A stretch of 64,000 bases of DNA from Podarcis pityusensis (Eukaryota). Shown one piece after another: positions 922 through 64,000 of the stretch (position 1 is its first letter; each line of letters opens with the position of its first letter). The DNA lies in assembly GCA_964106645.2 (NCBI GenBank), contig OZ067041.1, one strand, 5' to 3'. Made by a program: the position numbers and the translations under genes. The notes below the pieces were generated by a model. That model was not told where the DNA came from, did not search any database, and saw only the letters and a list, made by a program, of their open reading frames with translations.

Positions 922-1265
922 AAGGTAAAAAGGTAAAGGACCCCTGGACGGTTAAGTCCAGTCAAAGGCGATGATGGGGTTGCGGCGCTCATCTTGCTTT
1001 CAGGCCAAGGGAGCCGGCGTTTGTCCACAGAGAGTTTTCTGGGTCATGTGGCCAGCATAAGTAAACCACTACTGGTGTACGGAGGACCGTGACGAGTGCC
1101 GTTTACCTTCCCGCTACAGCAGTACCTATTTATCTACTTGCACTGGTGTGCTTTCGAGCTGCTAGGTTGTCAGGAGCTGGGACAGAGCAATGGGAGCTCA
1201 CCCCGTAGAGGGAATTCAAATCGCTGACCTTCCAATCAGCAAGCCCAAGAGGCTCAGTGGTTTAG
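922..1265 (-). mobile_element. Sauria (Squam1-type) SINE, 5' end missing
   Basis: Reverse-complement match to the copy at 55427, with (ACCTTT)-type tail and the GTAGATAAATAGGTAC core. Confidence 0.92.
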
Positions 1266-2372
1266 CAGAGGTGAGGCAAATAATCTGGCTAGGCTTTTGT
1301 GCGTGCGCGCGCGCACACACACACACACTCACTCACTCCCCTCTCTGCAATGGACTAGGCTGAGAAGAAAGTATCATCCAATCCAGCTGTGCAGTGCACT
1401 GAGGGTGGATTGGTTCATTCTTCATCTGGCATTATGTACATTCCCTAATTGTGGATGGCCTTGATACAGAGAAAATGCTGAGTTTGTGTGTTAGATACAA
1501 AGATGCTTTGGGGGACCTCCTCAGCAGGGAAAACTAGTGCTGGTTTAACTACTAGGACCACAAACAATGTGCTAATTGCCAGGAGGCAGATCTGAAAGTT
1601 TCTTCTAATTAGAATGAATGGGTTTCCTTTTCAGCTTACTGTCAGGGTTTTCTTTGTTTTTAAATAAAGGCCTGAAAAGCTGTGGAAACCTTGTATGCAC
1701 TGAATAATATGAGGTCCTCCAGCAGCAAAGCAACTCCAGCCAAGCCCAGGTAATGTCCTATTACCAAAACTAATTGTCAAGCTCTTTTTACTTTTAGTCT
1801 GTGAGCATGCTACGTACACAGCTTTGTTGAAGAGGGAGCATGAGAAGTCACATTAGTAGCAGGAAATCACATTTTATCTTACTGTGGATGTAAAGTCCCA
1901 TCTCTTAGCTGGCAATAAAACATGAAAGTGTCCTTAAATGCTACAATCAGTCCTGTGTGTGATTGAAAAGGCACGTATAATGTTCCAAATAAAAGGATGG
2001 AACTGAAATTGCCATATTGAAAGCAGTTCTCCAAGTTGCAATGGAACTGCCTGGGTTTGCTTCTCTAATTACTTCCTGATGCAATGAACTTGGACAGGTT
2101 GTCCTGCTTCTGCTGCTCTATTTTAATCCAGCCAAAATGTCCACAAGTCTCCTATTGTTTGTGAAAACCTTGTTAACAAACACACACACACATTTTGGGG
2201 CTCCCATACCAGAGTCTTCAGCACTTTCCATTGGGAAAGATTCCACTAGAAATAAGTAAATTTGGTCACCTAGGGTGCTTTCACAAATCAGATTTAAACT
2301 GGCTTTTGCGTCAATTGGTTTACAATACAAATGTATCCATATATTTATAGAGAAATTTAATTAACTGCTTAA

Positions 2373-2574
2373 TCAATAATAATAATAATAATAAATCTCC
2401 AAGTGGCATACAAATAAAAATATATGTAAAATATGACTAAAATCAACAAACCAAATAAAAATACATAAACCTGTTATTAGAAATAAAGATAAGATCAATA
2501 AAACTTTTAAAACATAACTAAATTGTGTATCCAGAGAGACTTGCTGAAACAAAAAGGTCTTCATCAGGCATCTT

Positions 2575-2607
<33 letters not shown>

Positions 2608-3365
2608 TTATTATTTATACCCCACCCATCTGTCTGGGTTTTCCCCACCACTCTGGGTGGCTCCCAACAGAATATTAAAAACACAATAAAACATCAAACT
2701 TTAAAAACTTCCCTAAACAAGGCTGCCTTCAGATGTCTTCTAAAAGTCAGATAGTTGTTCATTTCCTTAACACCTGACAGGAGGGTGTTCCACAGGGTGG
2801 ACGCCACCACCGAGAAGGCCCTCTGCCTCATTCCCTGCAACCTCACTTCTCGAAGGGAGGGAACTGTCAGAAGGCCCTCAGAGCTGGACCTCAGTGTCCA
2901 GACTGAACAATGGGGGTGGAGATGCTCCTTCAAGTATTATAGTGAGGGCGCCTGCCTATTGTCCATAGACAGGGAGTTTCAGAGCACAGGAATGACTTCT
3001 CAGAAATGCAGAATAGACATTATGTTGCACTTGTAATAGTGCAAGTTCTGCAGGTCAAAGTGATCAAACAGTATGGGGCAAGGCCTTATGAAAGCTGGTC
3101 CCAAGCATTATGGGCTTGATATACCTGAACTTGGCCTGGTAATAAATTGGCAGCCCGTGCAGAGATCTCTGAGCACAGGTGGAATATGCTGGCAAACTCT
3201 CACTCAGCAATTCTGCTGCGGCATTCTGCACTTTCTGTAGCTTCCATATCAACTGCAAGGAAAGTCCTGCATAGAGTGGGCTGCAGCAACCCTGCCTGGG
3301 CTAGCGTGATCAAGCTATCTTGGTTCAGGAATGGTCACAAGTGTCGTACCAGCAGGAGCTGGTGA
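2373..3365 (-). mobile_element. Old L2 LINE 3' fragment, interrupted by a younger L2
   Basis: (AAT)n tail at 2373; ORF remnant WKLQKVQNAAA typical of the L2 ORF2 post-RT region; homology resumes after ~2940. Confidence 0.65.
2577..2938 (-). mobile_element. L2 LINE 3' end (young family)
   Basis: ORF LRSSSEGLLTVP...RAFSVVASTLWNTL...FRRHLKAALF; microsatellite tail; highly similar to 6319-6697 and 56499-57347. Confidence 0.9.
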
Positions 3366-5089
3366 GAGGTGCTCCATTGGCGGGAGCCAAAATGGGATAT
3401 CCCAAGATGCAATCAGAAGCTGGGATGGCTTCCATAATTCTGGAATGTCCCGCTCAGGTCGGGACACTTACTCTGGAGTAAGCTGGTTGAGTGCCCAAGC
3501 AAAATGTTCCAGCTTGTGAGCTTTGGAGCACTTTCTAGAAGATTTTCAGGGATTGCGTCCCTCAAACGTCTGAGGAGTATCCCTTGAACAGCCCTTTGAG
3601 TTCAAAGATAATTCCGGAACCTGTAATGTATGTGATGTAAACAACCAAAGGTGCTTTCATTACTGTAAAATGACATATGCTAAAACAGTACTAAGAAATT
3701 TATTTTTGGCCTTTTGTGAGTTTCCTTTTAGAAGTGGTGTTCTTCAGAATGTAAACTGCTGTTGTTATGCTCATGGGAAGGGCAAAAAAACAAGATTTGT
3801 GCATGTGGTGAGGCTTTTCTTATCCTTTCCCATGGAGCAAACTTACTCCTGCCTTCCATACACTATTGCATCACAGGCTCCATTTAAATCTCAGGAGAGC
3901 TTTATAACAACCTTGAAATGCAGCGCAGGAGGGAAAGAAAGGAGAGGAAATCTCCGCGTAGTTCATTGCACATACATAAAAGAGACTGCTGGATCATGGC
4001 TAATATCTTCATTAAGCAACAAAGCTCCCTTTACATTTCAAATCTACATGCGCCCATTTACAGAAGGAAACATTTGGCCAATCTGTTCAGGGAAATCAAT
4101 AGCACTATAGCAAATGATCCCAAACACACCACATCCCTCTATTTCCTTCAGAATGTTTGATATTTGCATTTGTAGTGTGTGTTTTTTTACAGTGCCCTTG
4201 AGCCACATATGTCTTACCACAAACACATTAAGGGTCAATCTACCTTGTCAAAGGTCAGCTCATGGCAATCTTCCTTTTCTGCTATTTTGGATGGGCAAGC
4301 ATCATCATATTAATTTTTGGTCAATGCTGTTTTTAAGCGCAGCACTCACCAGAATTCAAACACTGAGTGGCACTAATGTTAATCTGTCCAGATATTTGCA
4401 CCTCCCAACCTCCCTTTGGCCAGGCAGAGGGAACACTTCCAAGCTTTTCATTATAACTATTCCATTTGTATTTTTTCAGTCTGGTATGAGTACAAGTGAG
4501 ATAATTGCTCAGCTCAGCAAGTTTCCTACCTTTGTGTTCTTAGACTTCAATAAAGCAGTATATTTTCAACTGTGGGTTTAGCACTCTTGCCTCAGGCCAC
4601 TGTCCCAGAGGGGCAACTGGCGCATCGTAAAATGTTCTACTTCTAAATATTTTTCTCTCCTTGTACGTATAATCTATGCATGTGTGTTTTTGCTGCAAGG
4701 AGGTGAAATGCTTGGTGAACACGTTGCAATTTTTTGACACCTCCGAAAGCTCTTTGATTTTTAAGTAAGCCTTTGTGCAACAGTGCCACATTAATTGTAG
4801 TTGTTCAAAGAAAAGATCTAGATCAGAGATCTGACATTAATGTAGCAACTTGTGAAGTTAAAGATAGCTTATCAGGGGTGGATTTTGATGGCTTTGTGGG
4901 GAAGGAAACACAGTGAGCTTTTGATGGAGAATTGCAGCCTTAATTACAAATAATGAGTAAAAACATTATGGCATATTTTTTAAAAGTCAGGTTTGGCACT
5001 GATATAATAAAGAAATTACCCATTAAAGCAATACAATCTACTATTTTGTATCCCATACAACAATGAGTCTTATAGCACGTGAAAGTCAA

Positions 5090-5447
5090 GCTCTGCTGGA
5101 TCAGATCCAAGCCCCATCTAGTACAGCATTTTTGTAGTGGGAATGTATCTGGGAAGCCCACGAGCAGATTAAGTTAAGAATACTCTCCCACTCATGTTCT
5201 CCAGCAACTTACACTCAAATATATGCCACCTCCAAAACTGGAGGAAGGACACAGCCATTGTGACACATAGCCAATGATAGCCTACTTTGGGTTGTCTAAT
5301 CTCCCTTTAAAATCATCTAAGAAAGTAACTGTCACCATATCTTGTGGCAGCAAATTCCATAGTTTAAGCACAATGTGAAGAAATACTTCTTCTTTTCTCT
5401 CCTGAATCTCCTACCATTCAGATTCATTGGATGACCTTGGGTTCTAG
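5090..5447 (-). mobile_element. CR1 LINE 3' fragment
   Basis: CR1-like 3' end and ORF2 C-terminus (TGTGGCAGCAAATTCCATAG...TGTGAAGAAATACTTC); related degenerate copy near 58240-58370. Confidence 0.7.
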
Positions 5448-5644
5448 CAGGGCCGACCCACTCATGAGACCAGGTGAGGAGACTGCCTCAGGCAGCAGGA
5501 TCCACCAGGGCAGCAGATACCAATGTTAATCCTTCTTCCCCCTTGTTCCTGATGCAGATCTTCCCTCATCCCTTCTTCCCCGGTATGGAGGGGGTGTCAT
5601 TTTGGGGTTTGCCTCAAGTGCCAAAATGTTTTGGGCTGGCCCTG
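5448..5644. mobile_element. hAT (Tip100-like) MITE inserted in CR1
   Basis: TIRs CAGGGCCGACCC / GGGCTGGCCCTG; 8-bp TSD GGTTCTAG / GGTTACAG. Confidence 0.75.
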
Positions 5645-6318
5645 GGTTACAGAATAAAGAGATGGATCAAAATGTCACTCTTTTTTTTTTATGGCATAAG
5701 CTCTCATCGACCATACTCTGCTAAATCCACAGACCCTCACAGCATACCATCCTTCCATGCGTAACTTCCCAGATTTCCTCAGAAATTCAGCCTGAACAAC
5801 CTGTGAATTCAACATAGTTTCAACTAACTTGAAAGTATGTGTTACACCATTCCGGCTTCCAGTTTCTTGATTCTGAACAACATTTATGTCAAATCATTGC
5901 AACACACTAAACCACTCTGTGCCTGACAACATCATAAGTATCCCTTCATACTTTCTGTTACCATTGCTGTAGTCACTGATGTGCACACCACTGAGCAATC
6001 TCTCGTGCTGAAGGGCCAGCAAAATGAAACAATTTTTTCCTTACACAGGAATGGTGCTCAAAGGGCTGGAGGTAGATTCAAGACCGGCTCACCCACAGCC
6101 CCAGTGATGGGGACTGGGAGCAAAGTCTGAGCTTGTGTACCCTCTCCCGCCATGTGCCAAGCCTTAGTATGAAGTCCAGCTTACACCTGGGAATGCTGAC
6201 ACACATGTACCATGTGATTACCCCTCCTTGTGGCAGTCACATTATGCCAGTAGGGTCAACACTCAAAGAAATTTGACTCTGGTCTGACATGTGCTTGAGG
6301 AAGGCACTTTGACACAAG

Positions 6319-6357
<39 letters not shown>

Positions 6358-6697
6358 TACCCCCACCCATCTGGCTAGGTTTCCCAAATCACTCTAGGAG
6401 GCTCTCAACAGAATATTAAAAACATGATAAAACATCAAACATTAAAAACTTCCCTAAACAGGGCTGCCTTCAGATGTCTTCTAAAAGTCAGATAGTTGTT
6501 TATTTCCTTGACATCTGATGCGAGGGCATTCCACATGCCGGGTGCCACTACTGAAAAGGCCCTGTAACTTCGCTTCTCGCAGTGAGGAAACCACCAGAAG
6601 GCCCTCAGAGCTGGACCTCAGTGTCTGGGCTGAATGATGGAGGTGGAGATGCTCCTTCAAATATTATACTGAGCTGAGGCTGTTTAGGGCTTTAAAG
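6319..6697 (-). mobile_element. L2 LINE 3' end (young family) with long (AAT)n tail
   Basis: Near-identical to 2577-2938; (AAT)n at 6319-6356. Confidence 0.9.
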
Positions 6698-16397: not shown

Positions 16398-17255
16398 AGC
16401 TAGATTGGAGCAATAGTTTGACTATTGGTTCCTGTGTTCCCCTTGGTGCTGATGTGCATGTCAGGTGCATTCCCTGAATTAATGCATCGTGTCCAGTGCA
16501 CGCATTGTCACTGAGGGGAAGAGACTTGCCTTTCACATTCCCAATTGCCCCTGTCATACATTCAAACTGAACATCTGAGGAGTTTGGAGACCTCAGAGAA
16601 CTATATTCAGTGCTCTGTGTGTGTGTGTGTGCCTGCACTCCAGTGGGAATGCTACAAGAGATCAGACCATCACGATCTGGGCTGAGATCTGGGAATCTCA
16701 GTTTTCATTTGGCATTAGACTTTCTTCTAGTCCTGATGGAGGAAGAATGTGTGTGTGTGTAGGCAGAAACGTATCAATATTGTAAGATTTGGAATTCCTA
16801 GGCACAGACATCTGGTTATCTTACTACAAAAGTGTAGGTGTTATGGAAGGAAGGTGGTTGGCATTGAATATATTCATTTATGATTATGGGTTTGATTTTT
16901 TTTTTTTTTTTTTAGTTATATCAGTAGAGCACCGATAAGCAATTCCTAGTCTGCCTTTTTCATTAGCATGCAAATTAAAACTATGAAAGAAAACGGTCTT
17001 TTTAATGTTTCCCCTTTCTATAGCAGGATCACTTTTTGTCCTTCCCTTTGTCCAAAGCACATGCTCATATATTAAAGACAACTGCAGAGTTCTGCCTTAG
17101 TACCTCATCAAACAGTTGCAGCATTAAATCAAAATTCCTGGACAGAACCTCATTGGAAACTCTTCTGTGAAAAAAAGAGAAGACTGGGAGGAAGGAAGGA
17201 AGGAAGGGAAGGAAGGAAGGGACCACAAAAACGAGTTGATATCTTTCAATTATTC

Positions 17256-18402
17256 TGGGGGCCTCTAGGGGGCGCATCGGAAGATGGCTGACAATAACAT
17301 CTCTCCGACCCACACGAGGTAATTTGGAGGCTATGATGGGAGTAATTAGCCTCCCTAACCCCCCCCCCAGGACGGTGGGGGGGGCTGCCTTTGCCTGCTG
17401 TGCCCTATACCACCCCCGAACTTGTGGGGATGGGGGCACTAGGCACAAAGCCCTCCTGTGGGATTCCAGCACTCCTGGACGCCGTCCCTGATTCGCGCCA
17501 CTAGCTGCTAGAACTTCAAAAGAAAACAATTTGGATGAAGGAATGCACATATTTCAAGGAAGGAGGGGAGTAAAGACTGCTATAGAAGAGATCTCTGATA
17601 AAACAAGACAAGAATAAAACATGAGAAGATACGCCAAGACACGGTATGGCAAATGACTGATGGGGGAGGGGAAAAAAACTTTCCTTTCTTTTCTTATGTG
17701 ATTAACAAGAATCCCCTCCCCTCACGAGTCACGAGTCAGAAATGTCGTTTTAAGGACTTAAGCTGTGGATTTAAGGCTGTGTGGAGATAAACTTTCGAAC
17801 CAAAGCATGTTTTAAGAAGAGCGAGGAATGTATAAGAGCTTGGGAATGACGCAGTTAAAAATGCCATCGCCATATTGGGAAGTTCTGTCGGAGGTCTTGA
17901 GTCTGGGAGGAGAAAGAGAGAAATAGAGCTGTTTCTATATTGTGGGTGGAACTCCTCAGAGGGACTTAAGAGCGACAGCTTTGCGAGATGGAAAGAGTGA
18001 TGTTATCTATGAAGGCGATGATATATGGAAACCATCTCGATTTGAGGAATGGAAGAACGGAAAATTCACACAGGATTATTATTATTATTGGTGTTTATCG
18101 GCTTAAGGAGACTATCAGAAGAGATCATAAAGAAAAAAGAGAAAATATATAAACAAGATGTGATGTGGAAACAGCAAGATAAGACTGGATAGAATTATGA
18201 ACTCTGTTTGGACTGATTTGGACTGATTTGGACATTAACGCAGTAGCAAGAAGATGATCAGAATCCCCCTTCGGATCTTGAAATATGGGTCCCCCCAACA
18301 AAATTTAAAATTCGGCTTTGTAATTCGGAATTTATGTGATGTGATTTAATTTGATTTGATTGACCGGTTAATAAAAATTATTTAAAAAAAGAAAAGAAAA
18401 AA
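17256..18402 (+). mobile_element. Non-coding poly(A) retroposon (L1-mobilised type), ~1.15 kb
   Basis: Perfect 18-bp TSD GATATCTTTCAATTATTC (17238-17255, 18403-18420); AATAAA at 18370 plus A-rich tail; GC-rich head with AAGATGGC. Confidence 0.88.
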
Positions 18403-18934
18403 GATATCTTTCAATTATTCCAGGAATGTTGCAGTACACAACAATTTTCAACTCTGGTTAATAGTAGTGATAGATGGATTACTCCCCCTCTGATATATAA
18501 ATGGCTTCTGTGAACTGGCTTATCCAGAGCCAGAATGGGAGGACAATGAGGTCTGAGCCCTCTTCCAACTCTGTCCTTCACTTTTCTGCCTTGCTGCTAG
18601 AAAGCCTCCAGCCTTTTCTGCCGGCCTTTCATCTGCTTCCCTCTGCCATCATTCTCATCAACAACAATGGCAAGAAAGAGAGTAAGGCTGTTCTTGTCCC
18701 ACTCTTTTCAGTTCCCCAACCTCAGTGCTGCTTTGGCTGCAAGCCAAGTACCCGTAATCAGAGTAAATCACATTTCCCAGTGCTCCTGATGACTGGATCA
18801 GTAGTATAGCATAAGGGTTAAGCACAGGAGACACAACGAAAGACTCCGCTCCTTCCTGCTGCTGCCAGAAGAATAGGAAGGGTGGAGGGTTCAGGATAGA
18901 AGGTTGGGAGAGAGAGAGGGAAGTCATGTGGATT

Positions 18935-23124: not shown

Positions 23125-24500
23125 ATTTTATAAATATTTTTATTCAGTTGCCAATACAAAATTATACAATCAAATCATCATTTTTATCACCCATAGCTCC
23201 TTTTTTTAACTTCCCTCAGCTTGTCTGATAATCATCCATTTTACTTACTTCTTCCACATTTCTTAATTTAATATTGCACTACAATATTATTTTACTCTTT
23301 ATCTTATTTTTTTAACAATATTTCTCGCATATATTATCACAAAACTTCTTTAAAACTTACAAACGTTATCTGATTATCACTTAATTTTTGCATATATTCT
23401 GTAAATTTACTCCAGTCTTCAGTAAATCTCTGGTCACGTCGGTTCCGCATCCTTTCTGTTAATTTATCAAGTTCCGCATAGTCTATCATTTTCATTCTCC
23501 ATTCTTCCATCGTAGATAGTTCTTCTTGTTTCCATTTCTGGGCCATCAATATTCTTGCTGCTGTCACCGCATATAAAAACAATTTTCTTTCTTTCTTATT
23601 AATCTCATTACCTATTATTCCTAGTAAAAATGCTTCTGTTTTTTTAACAAATGTATATTTCAACATTTTCTTCAATTCATTATATATCATTTCCCAAAAG
23701 CCTCTTACTTTTTTACACTCCCACCACATGTGATAAAACGTTTCTTCTTTTTCTTTACATTTCCAACACTTATTACTTGTTTTATACATCTTTGCTAACT
23801 TCACTGGTGTTGTATACCATCTATACATCATTTTCATCACATTTTCTTTTATTGTAGTACATGCAGTGAATCTTATTCCCTCCTTCCATAATTTTATCCA
23901 ATCATCTAATTGTATGTTACATCCAAAATCTTTGGCCCATTCAATCATCACTCCCTTCACTTCTTCATCCTTCGTATACCATTCCAATAATAATTTATAC
24001 ATTTTCGCCAAGTTTTTCATCCCATTATTCAATATCTCTTTCTAAAACTTTGATTCCTTATCAGAGAAACCTCTTTGATTCAAATCCTTCTTAAACATTT
24101 CATTAATCTGAAAATAGTGCAGCCAATCATTAACATATTCTTTGACCGCTTCATATGGTTTCATTTTCCATTTGTTTCCTACCCTTATTATTAACTTCCC
24201 ATATGTCGCCCAATCCCCCCTCATATTTGTCTTTTTCACACTCATTGCCTCCAATGGAGATAACCAAAGTGGGGTTTTGGGCTCCAATAAATTCTTATAC
24301 CTCTCCCATACTTCAATGAGAGATTTACAGATAATGTGGTTTTCAAAATTCTTATGAACACGTTTCTTATCATACCACAGATATGCGTGCCACCCAAATC
24401 TATTATCAAAACCTTCCAAATCTAACAGTTCTGTGTTTTCTAATTTCATCCAATCTTTTAACCAACAGAGGCAAGATGCCTCATAATATAATTTCAAGTC
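23125..24500 (-). mobile_element. 5'-truncated L1 LINE: ORF2 C-terminus with zinc knuckle plus 3' UTR
   Basis: DLKLYYEA...CWKC-x8-HMWWEC (zf-RVT); one continuous frame 24500-23337 broken only by a stop at 24042; minus-strand AATAAA at ~23140. Confidence 0.93.
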
Positions 24501-24599
24501 TTTCTGCCCCTGTCCAGAGACTATCAGTGAAGACTGAAAACTATCCAAAGTGGGTTTCAACACAGCATGAAGAATTGCATTTAGGAAGAAAAATCAGAG

Positions 24600-27230: not shown

Positions 27231-28301
27231 ATGTACAATAAACTCTGGAACTGGTTCCAAACCAAAGTGTTGTCCACCTGATGTTAAATCATGTGCAAAG
27301 GCATCAAAAACTACCTTGCCTCATTTTGTATTAATATCGCCACATTTGACAAGGGGAGTTTTGCATGGCAGTTGTGTAAACACTGTCTTTTCTGCCTATC
27401 ATGGTGGTGAAATTAGGAATAATAGGCACACTTTATTCCTGCAACCATAGCATTACTGAGGGTTTATGAACAAAATGATGAATTTAGAATAAACCCCATT
27501 TATGGTATTCCGCATTACCACGAGTACATAATCCTTTCCGCAGGCTAAAAGACTGTCAATAGGCTACTTCATAAAATAATGAATGTTTGCAGTAACAATT
27601 TCATGGGTTGGCTGCAAGTTAATAGCCTTTATTTCCAGTGTAACTTCCTTAGAGGTAGCCTAGTAAACAGTTTTTATATTTATAATATATTATGTTAACA
27701 ATGCTACTTATTTTCTAGTTTGATAAAGACATTATATTTTAGTATGACTGGCCGCAACAATGACAAGGGGGAATATTTAGAGCACACTATATTTTGACTG
27801 CCGTTTAGAATAATCATGGCAAACGGGAAATTCTGTTCACTTTGGTCTCTTATTGATCTGTTTGATTTCTATTCCCACTCATCCTTCAGACTGTTAAGGA
27901 CTTTGTACACAGAGTTGAATCCAGAGAGTGCTAGTTAGTTAGGGGATAGATTCAGGGGGTTTAGTCACAATGGAAACAATGGCATTTTAAGTTTTCCATC
28001 ACATATTTCTCCTTTTGATTCCAGTGAGGCTAAAGGAGCAATCCTGTACATGTCTATTCAGAAACACAGGATAGCAGCAGTTTCAGTTCCTCAGTATCCA
28101 ACCCACAGTATTTTGTTTTTCTAATTTATGTCATGCTGAGAAACAGTGTTTGCATGATCACCTGGGAGTTTTAAGTATTTTATTTATTATTTGGGAGATT
28201 TTATAGCCTGCTTTCTTACTGGAATTCCTAAAACAGATTACAAGAAGGATTGGTAGATCTTTGGGTGATCTGCCGCAGGTCAACAAAGGCTTCTGATTCT
28301 C

Positions 28302-29996
28302 GACTTCCGGGTTGGCGCCATCGCCGAATGGCGGACTCCCTCCGAGCTCCGGAGGGAGCCTGCTCGGCAGGGGCTGGGTCCTACCGCACCGGCGATGCGG
28401 GGACCCTTAAAAACCACGGCCACGGGGGCCGTGGACATGGAGACTCGGCTGGCACCGCTAGCGCCCTCCCGACTCGTGAAGGAGCCTTTTTAAAGGCTAC
28501 GGATCGGGTGCCGGGGAGAAGCGTGGTGCTTTGAGTCCTCTGCTATCCCTGCCGAGCGCAGCCGCATGCCATCCGGCGGAGAGCGCTGACTTCTTCCATT
28601 GAAAATTCGGACTTCTTAACAACAACCCGTGAGTAATTTGGAAACCGGGTTTAAAAGGAGGAAAAAAAAGAATTTTTTTTTTGGATTGGACACGAGCGGG
28701 GGGGATCCAAAAAGGAAGTCAGTCCCCCCCCCTACTGTAAACCTTCCAAAACAAGGACGGGGAAACCAAGGTCCAAAAAGATTTGTATTGCTGATAAAAA
28801 CTAAGAATTCCACGATGGGGAACTATAAGAACTGTGCTGGAGGAAGAATTGAGGGTGAAGAAACGTAACCCCCCCCCCTGGGAACCGGGGTGATTGAAGA
28901 GAGAGCCTGGTGAAAAGAGTCGGAGATTTTGACAGCTGTCAAAGTAGCTGTCAAAGTCGGAAAGCAGAGAGGATTTTATTATGAGAACTTTGCTGGTTAA
29001 ATTTGTTACAATTTGCTACAACTCGTTAAAACTTGGATATAAAATGGCGAAAACATGGATAACAATCGGACTTTTGGACTAGAGAAAACAAAGTTACAAC
29101 AATCCCCCTAGAGGAGTTTCGGGACATTACAAAGATGGTCGTAAGTGGAAAAATACCATTGGAATTTTACAGGACTGGTTATCTTCTGGGAAAGCTGCAA
29201 AACGGAAATAATATTTTGTCTACAGGGTGTTCAGCTAAAGGAGACAATAGAATTTTCTATTGAAGAAAGGAAGGGACTGAACGCAAGTTTTTGTTCCTGA
29301 ATAACAATAATCCCTGCAGATTCACTAAGCTTCTGAATTAGAACGTTTCAGCAGCGGAACAAGAGGAAATTGGACTACAATTTGGAAAGAACAATGGGGG
29401 GAGTTTTATTTTATTAAAGATCTGAAGTTAAGTGTTTTAAAAAATAACTATAAAAAGAAAAAGCCAGCAAGGAGTTGGGGGAAATAGGTGATTTATGGAC
29501 TTTAAGAATTCCCGGCGGATAACATGGTTTGGTGGTCAGGGGGAAATTAAACCGGGGACAGGGGGGGGAGAACTAAAATCCAAAGGCTTGTTAACTTCTT
29601 TTTTTTCTTTGAACTGGCTCTTTTTCATTTATTATATTTTTTATTTCTTATTTCTGATATTTCTATTGTGTGGGGTGTCCTTATCATTAAAAAAAGGGAA
29701 ATTGTGGAATGAAAATGGGGTGGGCCCTGGGGAGAGAACTTTTGTTTTTTTTATTAGGGGTATTGATGAGGAGTGTATAAATTTTAAATTTGAATAATGG
29801 TCTAAACAAATTAAGTTTCAATTAGAACTGAGAGCTTGTGGAGCCAACAATATGAAATGGGAATATGGCAGGGGTGGGGGAAGGGGGGAGTCCCAGAAAG
29901 TGGATCTATGAAAATAAGGCTTTGAATGTACTTTAATCTTTACTTTCTGTATTTCTGAAAATCTTAATAAATATCATTAAAAAAAAAAAAAAACAA
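28302..29996 (+). mobile_element. Non-coding poly(A) retroposon (L1-mobilised type), ~1.7 kb
   Basis: Perfect 21-bp TSD CAACAAAGGCTTCTGATTCTC (28281-28301, 29997-30017); CpG-rich head starting GACTTCCGG; AATAAA at 29966 plus poly(A). Confidence 0.9.
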
Positions 29997-31335
29997 CAAC
30001 AAAGGCTTCTGATTCTCACCTGTTTAAAACTAGCAACAGCAGCTTATCCCAGCTAATTTTTTCCACAAGAATTTCATGATGAGGCTACAGAATGCCGGAT
30101 AAATGCTTAACAGAAAGAAAAATATATCGCCCATTACCACCTCGTAACAATCAAATATGCTCAAGCCTGTACTAACCAACATTCTGAAAGAATTAAAAAG
30201 TGCTCTGAGGAAAAGGGAGAAAAATAGAAGCTTCTTTTGTGGGGGAATTTTTGAGAAATTGGCTCATAGGCTTCATCACAGCACTCACTAATGAGGATAA
30301 CTCCAGAATGATCAACTCTGAGAGAGGCACTTTTGATTTTTTTTACTGGCCGTCATATAGTCCCAGCCTATAGTTTGCTTCCTCTGTCTTGCTTCCTTTG
30401 TTTCTCAGTGTGTATTGATTTTTCAGGGGGGGGTGCAGGCACACTGACACATGCACGTGTGGGAGACAGAAATGAATGGTGGCAAAGCTGTCAAATCCAA
30501 AGCCCCACAAATTAATCATCCCTATACATTCACAGATCAGGCACAGCGCGTATAACAACAGATCAATTTTCTCTCATACCACCTACCGCTGTGTCTGAAT
30601 CATGACCTGTAAAGGCTATTTTCAAGGGAGGTGGTATAATTCATTTTCCCATGTTTAGTTCATTGTTAGGCTCTCTGACAAAAAGACAGAAAATTGGTGT
30701 GAAGCGTTTATTTAATTAATATTTCTCCACTGTTGCCACCCACCTCTTCCCTTATCCTGAGAGCTCAGAATTGGTGACAAGGCTAAAAAGACTTTGATAA
30801 AAAAAAACCTAACAAAATAAAATACTTCTTTAAAACATTATAGTACTCTGTGGATATTCTTTCTTTCTTTTTAATACCATTTGTTTGCTTAACCTTGCTA
30901 ATTAAAGTGAGTGTAATGTTTAGGCCCTAAACCAAAATGCCTTATATGACATTTGGAAAGTGCTCGGCAAAAGGAACTCAATAGTTCTCAAGGGGAGCCC
31001 ATATACCCTGCAAAATGAGTAGAAGACACCACAAACTATGGGTTCAATGCATATCCTACTGAAATCAATGGGGACACTGCCATGCTACTGAATGGAATAG
31101 GCTATCCCCATGCACAGGTCTGTGCTTGTGAATGTAACCCCTGAGCCTAGCATAGCTAATTGCTCTTATGGCCTAGTGATGCTGTGAAATGGGTCCAGGA
31201 GACACCATATCCTGCCATCTGTCAGGAGCTGTTGAGCCTGGGGCCAGGAAGCTACTGCTCTGTACACAGCTGCTCCAGGAGTAGGGATGTGAGGAGGCAA
31301 CAATTCCCTTCATGTCCTATGTCCATCACAATCAA

Positions 31336-61779: not shown

Positions 61780-64000
61780 GCGGCAAATGGGGCGGGGAAC
61801 GAGGGAGGACCAGAAGGTGAACCTACTGGTGTTAACAGTCTCCTGCTGCGTCGTTAAGCGCTCCTGAACTCAGGTGATTATTTGGAGCCATGCCACGGCT
61901 GGAAGAAGAAGATGATGAGGATGAAGAAGAGTGTCGGGTATTTGCTTGCTCGCTGACGGTCGTTTGCAAGACAACCCTGTCGCCTTTCTGTCTCTTGCTG
62001 TGCTCCTGGTGCTTCTTCCAGCTGGTCGGAGGAGGATTCTCGGAGGGTCCTAGCGTGGAAGGAGAAAGAACGGGGCTGGCAACGGTTTGCGGACGGAAAA
62101 CCAGCAAGCCTGTATTTTTCACCAGGCACGAAGGACTTAATAACCACCCAGAGTAAAACTGGCAGACGAGTCAAAGGAAGGTAGAGAAGGGGAAATCATG
62201 GAGAGCAAAAGGAAACTCAATCGTGGTTAGAAGCAAAGAAAAAGAAAGAAATGCTACAGAGGAAAGGGGGGTGGGTAGGGAAAAAAATAGAAATGAAAGT
62301 ATAAAAAACAGAGTGAGAAACACTGATTATCTCTCTCTGCCCCGCCCCCCGCCTCTAAAAACCCCCCTCCTAATTTGCAAGTAGGGAAGGGGAGGGAGAG
62401 GAGCGGCATGTACCACTAATTCTCAAAGGGAGGGGGAGGAAGCCATTGTGACATACCCTCCGCTCCCACCTTCCCGCTCCCGGGTGTCCGGCTTCCTCGT
62501 CGGAGGCGTCGAGTCGTTGAGACCGGGGACGTCCCGTCAGAGAAAGGCCTTCAGGGAAAGAGAAGCACAAAGGAGGGGGGGACCCGCGCTCTCAACGCCC
62601 CTCCCCTGGCGGTCGGGATGGTCCGTCCCGTTCCTTCGGTGGGAGGAGGAGGAGGAGGAGGGGCAGCGGGCGCGACGCCTCCCCGCGCAGCGACACACGG
62701 ACCCGGCGCTGCGAAGGGAAGGAGGCGGAGGAGGAGGCTGCGCTGCCGAGCCGTAGCGGCGGCGGTTGCTGCTGCTGCTGCTGAGAACGGAGCCCCCAGC
62801 ATGGCCGGGTCCATTGTGGCGGCGGACGCTCCGCCGGCTCCTCCCGGCCGCCGCCGCCGCCGCTGCTCGTCCTCTTCCCCTCCATCTCGGCTCTGTTGCC
62901 ACCGCCGCCCGGCTGCGCCCGCCCTGCCCGGCTTGCTCTCGCTGGGCTTGCTCCTCTCCCGCGTCTGCTGCGGTGAGTCGCCGCAGAAACTTTTCTCTCT
63001 TTTTTCCGCGAAGGGGGCGGCGGCTCCTCTCCGGACCAAACCAGTTCCCTCTCCCCCTCCAGCCTCTCCCCTCCGTCGTCCGAGCGCGGGGCGCGAAGGG
63101 GCCGCCGCTGTGGGAGGGACGGAGGTTGAGAAAGAGCGAGCGAGGGAGGGAGAAGTGGCGGGCGGGACTTAGGGGAAACTTTTCCCTCAACCGCTAGTCG
63201 GGAGAAGTTGCGTGTCCGGTGGAGGCGAGGTGGGCCAAGCCGGAGGCGAGAGACCCCGGCCGGAGGCGCAGGGGCGGCGGGAGGAGGGGAAGTGCCTCGC
63301 GTCTTTTCTCTTCATGAGGGGAAATGGAGGAACCAACCTCGAGGGTCCTTCCCCCCCACCCCTTTTTCAACATTTCGCGAGGGGGGGCTGGAGGGTGAGC
63401 TTATTCGGTGTGGGGGGGCGGTTGCTGCTTCTGGGTGTGGCGCTCGAGGGGGGCTTCTTGTGAAGGGGGGGCGCGCGAAGCCGGGCAAGAGTTGTGGGGC
63501 GTCGAAGAGCAAGCGATGTGTGCGAGGGTGTGTCTTGTCTGCAGCTCATGTTCCTCTGCTGAGATAAATACTCGTTTTCTCGTGCGCTCGTTAAAAGGCA
63601 CACACATACACGGAGGCAGCGCTTTCCGAGCCCGTGGCTGGGCTAGCACGATCAACATCCCCCCGCTTCCCCGACTTGTCTCCGGCAGGCGGGAGCCTCG
63701 AAGGTCCGCCGCTCTTTTTAATAGTTTGTGTGTATTTGTGCGTTGCCAACCCCGCGCATCTGCTATTCCGGGAGCGCTCCTCTGCCCGGCGTCGGCGCGC
63801 AGGCGGAGAGAGTGAGCGTGTGTGTCCTGCCGCCTTGTTGTGTTTTGTTGTCGGCGCTGTTGCTGGGAGTTGGAGCTGTTGGGATTCCACTTGTCACTTG
63901 GAGCCGCCGCCGCCGAGACCGTTACGTCCGGCATTCTGGGAGCTGCGCTGGCTGGAAGCTGCTCTCGCTCGTCTCCGTTCTGTCTCGGCTGATGACGGGG
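61780..64000. promoter_or_regulatory. CpG-island promoter
   Basis: Abrupt rise in GC and CpG; GC box GGGGCGGGG at ~61789; (GGA)n, (GCT)n and (GCC)n runs; contains a first coding exon. Confidence 0.92.
62801..62972 (+). CDS. NECTIN3: First coding exon (signal peptide) of a cell-surface/secreted protein, best match nectin-3
   Basis: Strong Kozak CCCAGCATGG. Encodes MAGSIVAADAPPAPPGRRRRRCSSSSPPSRLCCHRRPAAPALPGLLSLGLLLSRVCC-G(phase 1) and ends at the donor GCG|GTGAGT. As recalled, mammalian nectin-3 exon 1 is a similarly long Pro-rich leader ending LLLFSRLC-G in phase 1. The exon is well supported; the symbol rests on a short motif and is tentative. Confidence 0.6.

Follow-up and report, generated by a model that had tools for sequence, protein, structure and literature searches.

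The lizard Podarcis pityusensis carries a young and abundant family of retroposons that lack open reading frames (ORFs) and that we interpret, with a probability of about 0.8, as a long-lived parasite of L1 with RNA polymerase II (Pol II)-type transcription. The member analyzed here lies in a 64,000-nucleotide (nt) stretch of contig OZ067041.1 (GenBank assembly GCA_964106645.2), hereafter the window. A preliminary description of the window had proposed a non-coding, L1-type retroposon that is neither a tRNA-derived short interspersed element (SINE) nor an autonomous long interspersed element (LINE), and this is borne out by the genome-wide data. That the element is transcribed by Pol II and uses L1 proteins is suggested by its sequence hallmarks. 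Its parts, all on the + strand, are as follows.

17238..17255, +, left target-site duplication (TSD) of 18 bp, from flank comparison
17256..18402, +, full-length non-coding retroposon copy of subfamily A1, 1,147 bp
17256..17320, +, 5' terminus with a G-run followed by AAGATGGC, a YY1-type motif at 17281-17288; candidate internal promoter
17327..17445, +, three GC-rich hairpins (17327-17353, about 17359-17385, and 17392-17445) with compensatory changes between lineages
17450..18265, +, fast-evolving non-coding body, with 32 to 57% of columns identical across lineages A, B, and C
17662..17722, +, mid-body stem of a G-run and a C-run closing a large pyrimidine-rich loop, from the consensus fold
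18266..18385, +, conserved 3' block, with about 75% of columns identical across lineages A, B, and C
18370..18375, +, AATAAA
18384..18402, +, A-rich tail
18403..18420, +, right TSD of 18 bp, from flank comparison

The perfect 18-bp duplication is the sole repeat of at least 10 bp shared by the two flanks. It had been reported from the letters of the window, as had the AATAAA with its A-rich tail, the GC-rich head (55 to 67% G+C over the first 200 nt), the lack of any sense ORF of 60 codons or more (the longest sense ATG ORF has 54 codons and the longest stop-free stretch 77), and the lack of a tRNA head, and all of these features stand; a tRNA search of the whole window found none. The body, described as purine rich, is so only in patches, its purine share reaching 0.73 in some parts and falling to 0.47 in others. 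An Rfam search of the element gave two hits, both far under gathering scores (E values of 0.73 and 0.95), and comparison with a phage collection gave no match. Self-comparison detected no internal repeat array of the kind that marks SVA and LAVA composites, with their variable-number tandem repeats (VNTRs) and Alu-like parts.

There are over a thousand copies of the family in this genome. Among 1,911 candidates from a DNA search with the window copy, 40 were scored, and all 40 are near full length at 93 to 100% identity. The 30 closest copies fetched (window copy counted) all start within a few bases of one G-run, and because 27 of them have their own TSD of at least 11 bp, the retroposon signal exceeds chance. 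Exact matches to the head and tail motifs number 858 and 807 genome-wide (1 and 0 for the controls, which here and below are reversed patterns and gave 0 to 1); allowing up to 3 mismatches raises the heads to 1,398 (control, 1), and D-type tails with up to 2 mismatches number 388. Contig C1 has 82 heads and 87 tails, and 63 of the tails have a head as partner, mostly at a spacing of 1.0 to 1.1 kb. The genome-wide copies rule out a single-copy retrocopy of a host RNA, the case that the preliminary description had named against its own reading.

The family comprises at least five lineages, about 50 to 75% alike and 1.13 to 1.38 kb long. Lineage B is 70 to 76% identical to A, and its 40 scored copies, out of 40, match their query at 96 to 100%; lineage C is 66 to 69% identical to A and B; lineage D (1.24 to 1.31 kb) shows 51 to 61% identity; and lineage E measures about 1.38 kb without a nested SINE. 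Another 40 loci chosen by the head motif represent older subfamilies of equal size at 82 to 91% identity, and many intermediates connect the lineages. Divergence from the respective consensus is low (1.7% in A1, 1.1% in A3, and 1.5% in B), and the window copy lies 1.14% away from the consensus built on the 30 copies closest to it. The lineages differ in completeness: 24 of the first 30 tails on C1, which are of the A-C type (L161-L190), extend to within about 30 nt of the 5' end, as opposed to only 6 of 50 D-type tails (L301-L350), which are mostly 5' truncated. A lineage E query returned one additional full copy, no ORF-bearing ancestor, and otherwise a single internal fragment of about 370 bp repeated together with its flanks (L353-L380); the fragment has identical end points at 37 places on contig C19 and one on C136 and is probably carried there by a larger repeated unit. 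An index of sequencing runs holds seven coded organisms, four of them with about half of the sampled words.

Such young copies in lineages that lie 25 to 38% apart and are joined by intermediates make it very improbable that the family arose as processed pseudogenes from a single strongly expressed host gene for non-coding RNA, or from a small number of such genes, its copies being unable to act as sources. Sense-biased RNA coverage and conserved hairpins (both given below) would suit that origin, but the start of the copies varies by no more than a few bases, the oldest heads resemble L1, and no Rfam family is matched.

Translation of the consensuses revealed no coding capacity. Sense ATG ORFs in the five lineage consensuses range from 41 to 95 codons, and none is common to the lineages; an antisense ATG ORF of 98 codons across the head of the window copy is missing from the four other consensuses (36 to 58 codons there). 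Most indels between lineages break the frame, multiples of three accounting for 6 of 35 (A1/B), 7 of 42 (A1/C), and 10 of 38 (B/C). Hidden Markov models (HMMs) of L1 ORF1 (18 sequences) and of the ORF2 C terminus scored under shuffles in the copies, and in a frameshift-aware scan, profiles built on 53 ORF1 and 15 ORF2 proteins reached 19 to 25 for ORF1 (shuffle maxima, 24 to 28) and 37 to 47 for ORF2 (shuffle maxima, 41 to 55). Lineages B (25 versus 24) and E (45 versus 42) edged over their shuffles, of which there were only 12 and 6. Pfam returned nothing for the element, a weak negative since it also missed a genuine ORF1, and a genome search with Pfam PF02994 was uninformative, being silent everywhere, controls included. 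Relics of ORF1 and ORF2 seen by eye in translations found no support in the HMMs or the scan. Across all copies examined, there is no ORF and no detectable ORF1 or ORF2 relic.

These results bear on whether the family is an old derivative of L1 that retained only ORF1, like mammalian HAL1, with that ORF since eroded past recognition and the same lifestyle as an L1 parasite. A real ORF1 scores 245 in the scan, falls to about 30 (29 to 32) after 30% substitutions and 3% indels, and is lost at 40% substitution, so that a very old coding origin may lie beyond the detection limit; the lineages differ by 25 to 50%, which is near that limit. The L1-like start and end of lineages D and E and a drop in length from about 1.38 kb (E) through 1.28 to 1.31 kb (D) to 1.13 to 1.16 kb (A-C) also agree with this history. 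We nevertheless regard it as unlikely, since the ORF1 signal is nil in all lineages although a real ORF1 damaged to 30% substitutions and 3% indels still exceeds shuffles (29 to 32 versus 24 to 28), and L1 5' untranslated regions (UTRs) of 0.94 to 1.35 kb leave scant space for a 1-kb ORF1. The earlier comparison with HAL1 thus holds for the lifestyle and not for an ORF1 relic, which was detected in no lineage.

The integration signature of the family matches that of L1. Perfect TSDs of at least 13 bp directly follow the tail in 115 of 159 head-plus-tail copies, and the median TSD is 17 bp for 115 element copies drawn from 172 heads and likewise for 16 full-length L1s, these being the loci with a TSD among 20 young L1 loci fetched (L393-L412). 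Elements and L1s alike show a pyrimidine before the cut and then a purine- or A-rich first five bases (R-A-R-A-A), so that the element has the 15- to 20-bp TSD, A-rich tail, and pyrimidine/purine junction of L1-type insertions. The 3' end of the youngest L1 family reads TTAATAAAAA, followed by TTATT with a T-run of variable length and a stretch of A's; the element has the same arrangement, and the terminal ~20 nt of its 3' block resemble the end of young L1s. Twelve of the 20 L1 loci carry both ORF1 and ORF2, the latter reaching 1,250 codons or more, in several young families of about 6.0 kb; for this reason L1 is probably active in this genome, which therefore holds intact candidate helpers. 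PMC13295347 gives lacertid Bov-B a (CAA)n end and an upstream T-stretch signature. L1 is the likely helper of the family, judging from the match in TSD length, site profile, and terminal ~20 nt and from the differing Bov-B tail.

Copying by another LINE, be it a Tx1-type or unsampled L1 clade or Bov-B rather than the young clade-1 L1s, appears quite improbable. TSD length, site profile, and tail fit clade-1 L1s, both the tail and the site signature of Bov-B differ, and of 100 tail loci, none is joined to the ORF2 of a sampled L1 or to any ORF-bearing L1, an absence that speaks against a stringent partner among those sampled with which the element would have its 3' end in common. On the other side, several LINE clades occur in the genome, sequence shared with clade-1 L1s is limited to the last ~20 nt, and A-tailed TSDs of 15 to 20 bp may not be exclusive to one L1 family.

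No sampled member of the family behaves as an autonomous L1: among 84 head loci tracked 4 to 7 kb downstream, none enters an ORF1 or ORF2 of its own. These head and tail loci sample part of the family, mostly on contigs C1 to C5. The L1 pieces inside some copies are nested insertions. Locus L080 carries, at 1230-6400 in element orientation, a 5'-inverted L1 with a complete ORF1 inside the tail of an element copy; this L1 is bounded by a 17-bp repeat of its own, copied from the element's tail, so it was inserted later, and the apparent chimera under a single TSD, or a long 3' transduction, is ruled out there. Locus L081 has a 304-bp 3' extension within its TSD, a possible transduction.

The most distant lineages point to the source of the head. 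Copies of lineages D and E start with (G/C)ACTTCCG and retain the AAGATGGC motif; (G/C)ACTTCCG is given as the terminus of lizard clade-1 L1s in PMC5381506 and also occurs at the 5' ends of L1s in this genome. Positions 17256..17320 of the window copy are the counterpart of this clade-1-like terminus (PMC5381506, section 9). About 63 nt of one lineage D head can be aligned to all 11 L1 5' ends used as targets, not all of which are independent, at a score that 0 of 500 shuffles reach; a second D head gave P values of 0.004 to 0.094. Beyond about 65 nt, there is no likeness to the sampled L1 5' UTRs (0.94 to 1.35 kb long), and the body matches neither 11 L1 5' UTR sequences nor 30 3' regions. 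Because the most distant lineages start with the lizard clade-1 terminus, the head is probably derived from L1, and birth of the family from an L1 5' end is a reasonably good bet. Lineages A-C have a G-run in place of this terminus, and their heads resemble the start of mammalian L1 (G-run plus YY1 site, the YY1-type motif lying near the start as in mammalian L1), presumably by convergence.

The head also appears to be structured. Its first 274 nt fold with a z score of -3.5, 0 of 200 shuffles being as stable, and a sliding consensus fold places structure chiefly in the first 220 nt and at about 400 to 465. In a covariation alignment of 39 heads of lineages A-C, which are related sequences, both sides changed in 9 of 40 pairs (1 to 2 in slid controls) and 95% of cells are paired (49 to 58% in slid controls); G-U intermediates favor the sense strand in the head hairpins. 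The mid-body G-run/C-run was seen in 14 of 15 lineage representatives; its reading as an expression and nuclear retention element (ENE) was dropped, as it is U-rich on only one side of the loop.

A structured head, an A-tail, and mostly full-length copies would also be expected of an unusually long RNA polymerase III (Pol III) SINE whose head had escaped recognition. That the family is such a SINE is hardly credible: A and B boxes are absent from all five consensuses, each of which contains internal T-runs of 4 to 8 that should stop Pol III, the AATAAA is canonical, and the head bears no likeness to tRNA, 5S, 7SL, or small nuclear RNA.

Two bulk RNA runs yielded 389 and 221 reads from about 12% of each run, most first mates mapping to the minus strand between the third bin and a point close to the tail. 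Provided that the libraries follow the customary stranding, this denotes sense RNA; in the last two bins, a different source on the opposite strand prevails. Such coverage would fit transcription from a promoter within the element but is not proof of it.

As an L1 parasite, the element would retain a head from a clade-1 L1 5' end that still serves as its promoter, and its RNA, polyadenylated at its own AATAAA, would be captured in trans by L1 ORF2p, with ORF1p a probable partner, before target-primed reverse transcription placed the new copy in the genome. Selection on the hairpins may act through promoter function, RNA stability, or entry into L1 particles. More tentatively, the family may descend from an L1 5' end that shed all coding sequence and became a pure RNA element, which then split into at least five lineages up to ~50% apart while its structured head was kept by selection. 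The contrast between about 80% full-length copies in the younger lineages and about 12% in the most L1-like one suggests, under this tentative account, an RNA device for efficient L1 capture and complete copying.

Several observations weigh against the family being such a parasite. No autonomous L1 was found whose likeness to the element extends past ~65 nt of the head, into the body, or over more than the final ~20 nt; a 3' transduction look-alike appears in just 1 of 159 copies (L081). The A1 head matches L1 5' ends weakly (P values of 0.012 to 0.58), and the D head was chosen after its motif had been seen and compared with mononucleotide shuffles. Single 150-nt head windows of the consensuses fold at z scores of just -0.9 to -2.3. 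The structure was partly picked after the alignment was viewed, and the number of doubly changed pairs does not exceed a letter-shuffle control (118 of 500); as the sequences are also related, the double changes perhaps reduce to six or seven lineage-level events. Two single-cell RNA runs (97 and 117 reads) show both strands, RNA reads are mostly 90 to 95% alike and possibly from a different species, and reads pile up at neither the start nor the end in the bulk and single-cell runs.

Other repeats lie in the window, which we take to be a Sauria-type SINE, Bov-B, L2, CR1, and L1 fragments. Together with the finding that the named relatives of an ORF1 from one of the genome's L1s are Podarcis proteins, they point to a lacertid-like host. 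At 23125-24593 (-) is the 3' end of a 5'-truncated L1 whose ORF2 is interrupted by an in-frame stop; 52,346 candidate relatives of this ORF2 end occur in the genome. The likeness between the end of this L1 and that of the element, noted earlier, is real and short, and the end of the young full-length L1 family fits better. A second ORF-less insertion, 1.7 kb long, occupies 28302-29996 (+) between 21-bp TSDs at 28281-28301 and 29997-30017; over its first 295 nt it has about 74% identity with the 5' UTR of young L1s, no ORF1 or ORF2 relic was detected in it, and its sequence is unrelated to the element family, so that it may be an independent L1-derived parasite. Positions 62000-64000 form a GC-rich island (61 to 64% G+C) with long open frames, possibly the 5' end of a host gene. 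Elsewhere in the genome, downstream of an element copy, L061:4100-7500 (element orientation) has long gag- and pol-like ORFs of the long terminal repeat (LTR) retrotransposon type, presumably Gypsy-like.

What is known of how non-coding RNAs get past the preference of L1 for its own transcripts comes mainly from Alu and SVA. If the tentative account given above is right, the family is an L1-clade element that is non-autonomous and ORF-absent, and it offers a natural experiment on the RNA features by which ORF2p can be recruited in trans without the devices of Alu. It is a large, young, non-mammalian case in which graded lineages, conserved hairpins, and intact helper L1s coexist in one genome, where promoter, structure, and helper dependence become directly testable; young full-length copies should also serve as insertion markers. 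The literature searched, to which subscription journals, Repbase Reports, supplements, and Repbase/Dfam consensuses did not belong, gave no account of the family, and the combination of gene-lessness, likely descent from the L1 front end, and likely borrowing of L1 for copying was not found described there. An unnamed consensus in automated lacertid repeat libraries is quite possible.

Among known systems, squamate SINEs (Sauria/Squam1 and Squam3) are likewise abundant non-autonomous retroposons of such genomes, with Bov-B-type or other tails (PMC13295347). They are short and tRNA-headed, and they are structurally unrelated to the element. Primate SVA and LAVA are long, non-coding, L1-mobilized, Pol II-type, and polyadenylated, as the element appears to be; they are composites of Alu, VNTR, and endogenous retrovirus or L1 parts, whereas the element has no VNTR or SINE part and a head apparently from L1. 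Lizard clade-1 L1s (PMC5381506) share with the element the D/E 5' terminus, the terminal ~20 nt, TSD length, and target profile; unlike them, the element has no ORFs, its 5' UTR likeness ends at ~65 nt, and lineages A-C begin with a G-run.

Mammalian HAL1 (PMC5753468 and PMC5786205) is a non-autonomous L1 derivative that encodes ORF1p, has L1-type ends, and depends on L1 ORF2p. The element resembles it in its L1-type ends, in lacking ORF2, and in its presumed reliance on L1 ORF2p; it differs in having neither an ORF nor an ORF1 relic in any lineage and in that its L1 homology is confined to the extreme ends. In PMC5786205, a 2018 survey, ORF-absent bipartite LINEs (RIME, NARTc, Vingi-N, RTESINE/WALLSI3, and R2 derivatives) are listed only for RTE, Ingi, Vingi, and R2, and L1 is represented only by the ORF1-bearing HAL1. 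With these bipartite LINEs, the element shares the absence of any ORF, a multicopy, fixed structure, a probably LINE-derived 5' end, a LINE-like 3' end, and presumed Pol II transcription. Its presumed machinery, however, is L1-type, its homology to the putative parent is limited to the termini (~63 nt of the head in lineage D and ~20 nt of the tail), and about 1 kb of body, between the parts that would correspond to the 5' and 3' parts of an autonomous LINE, matches no sampled L1.
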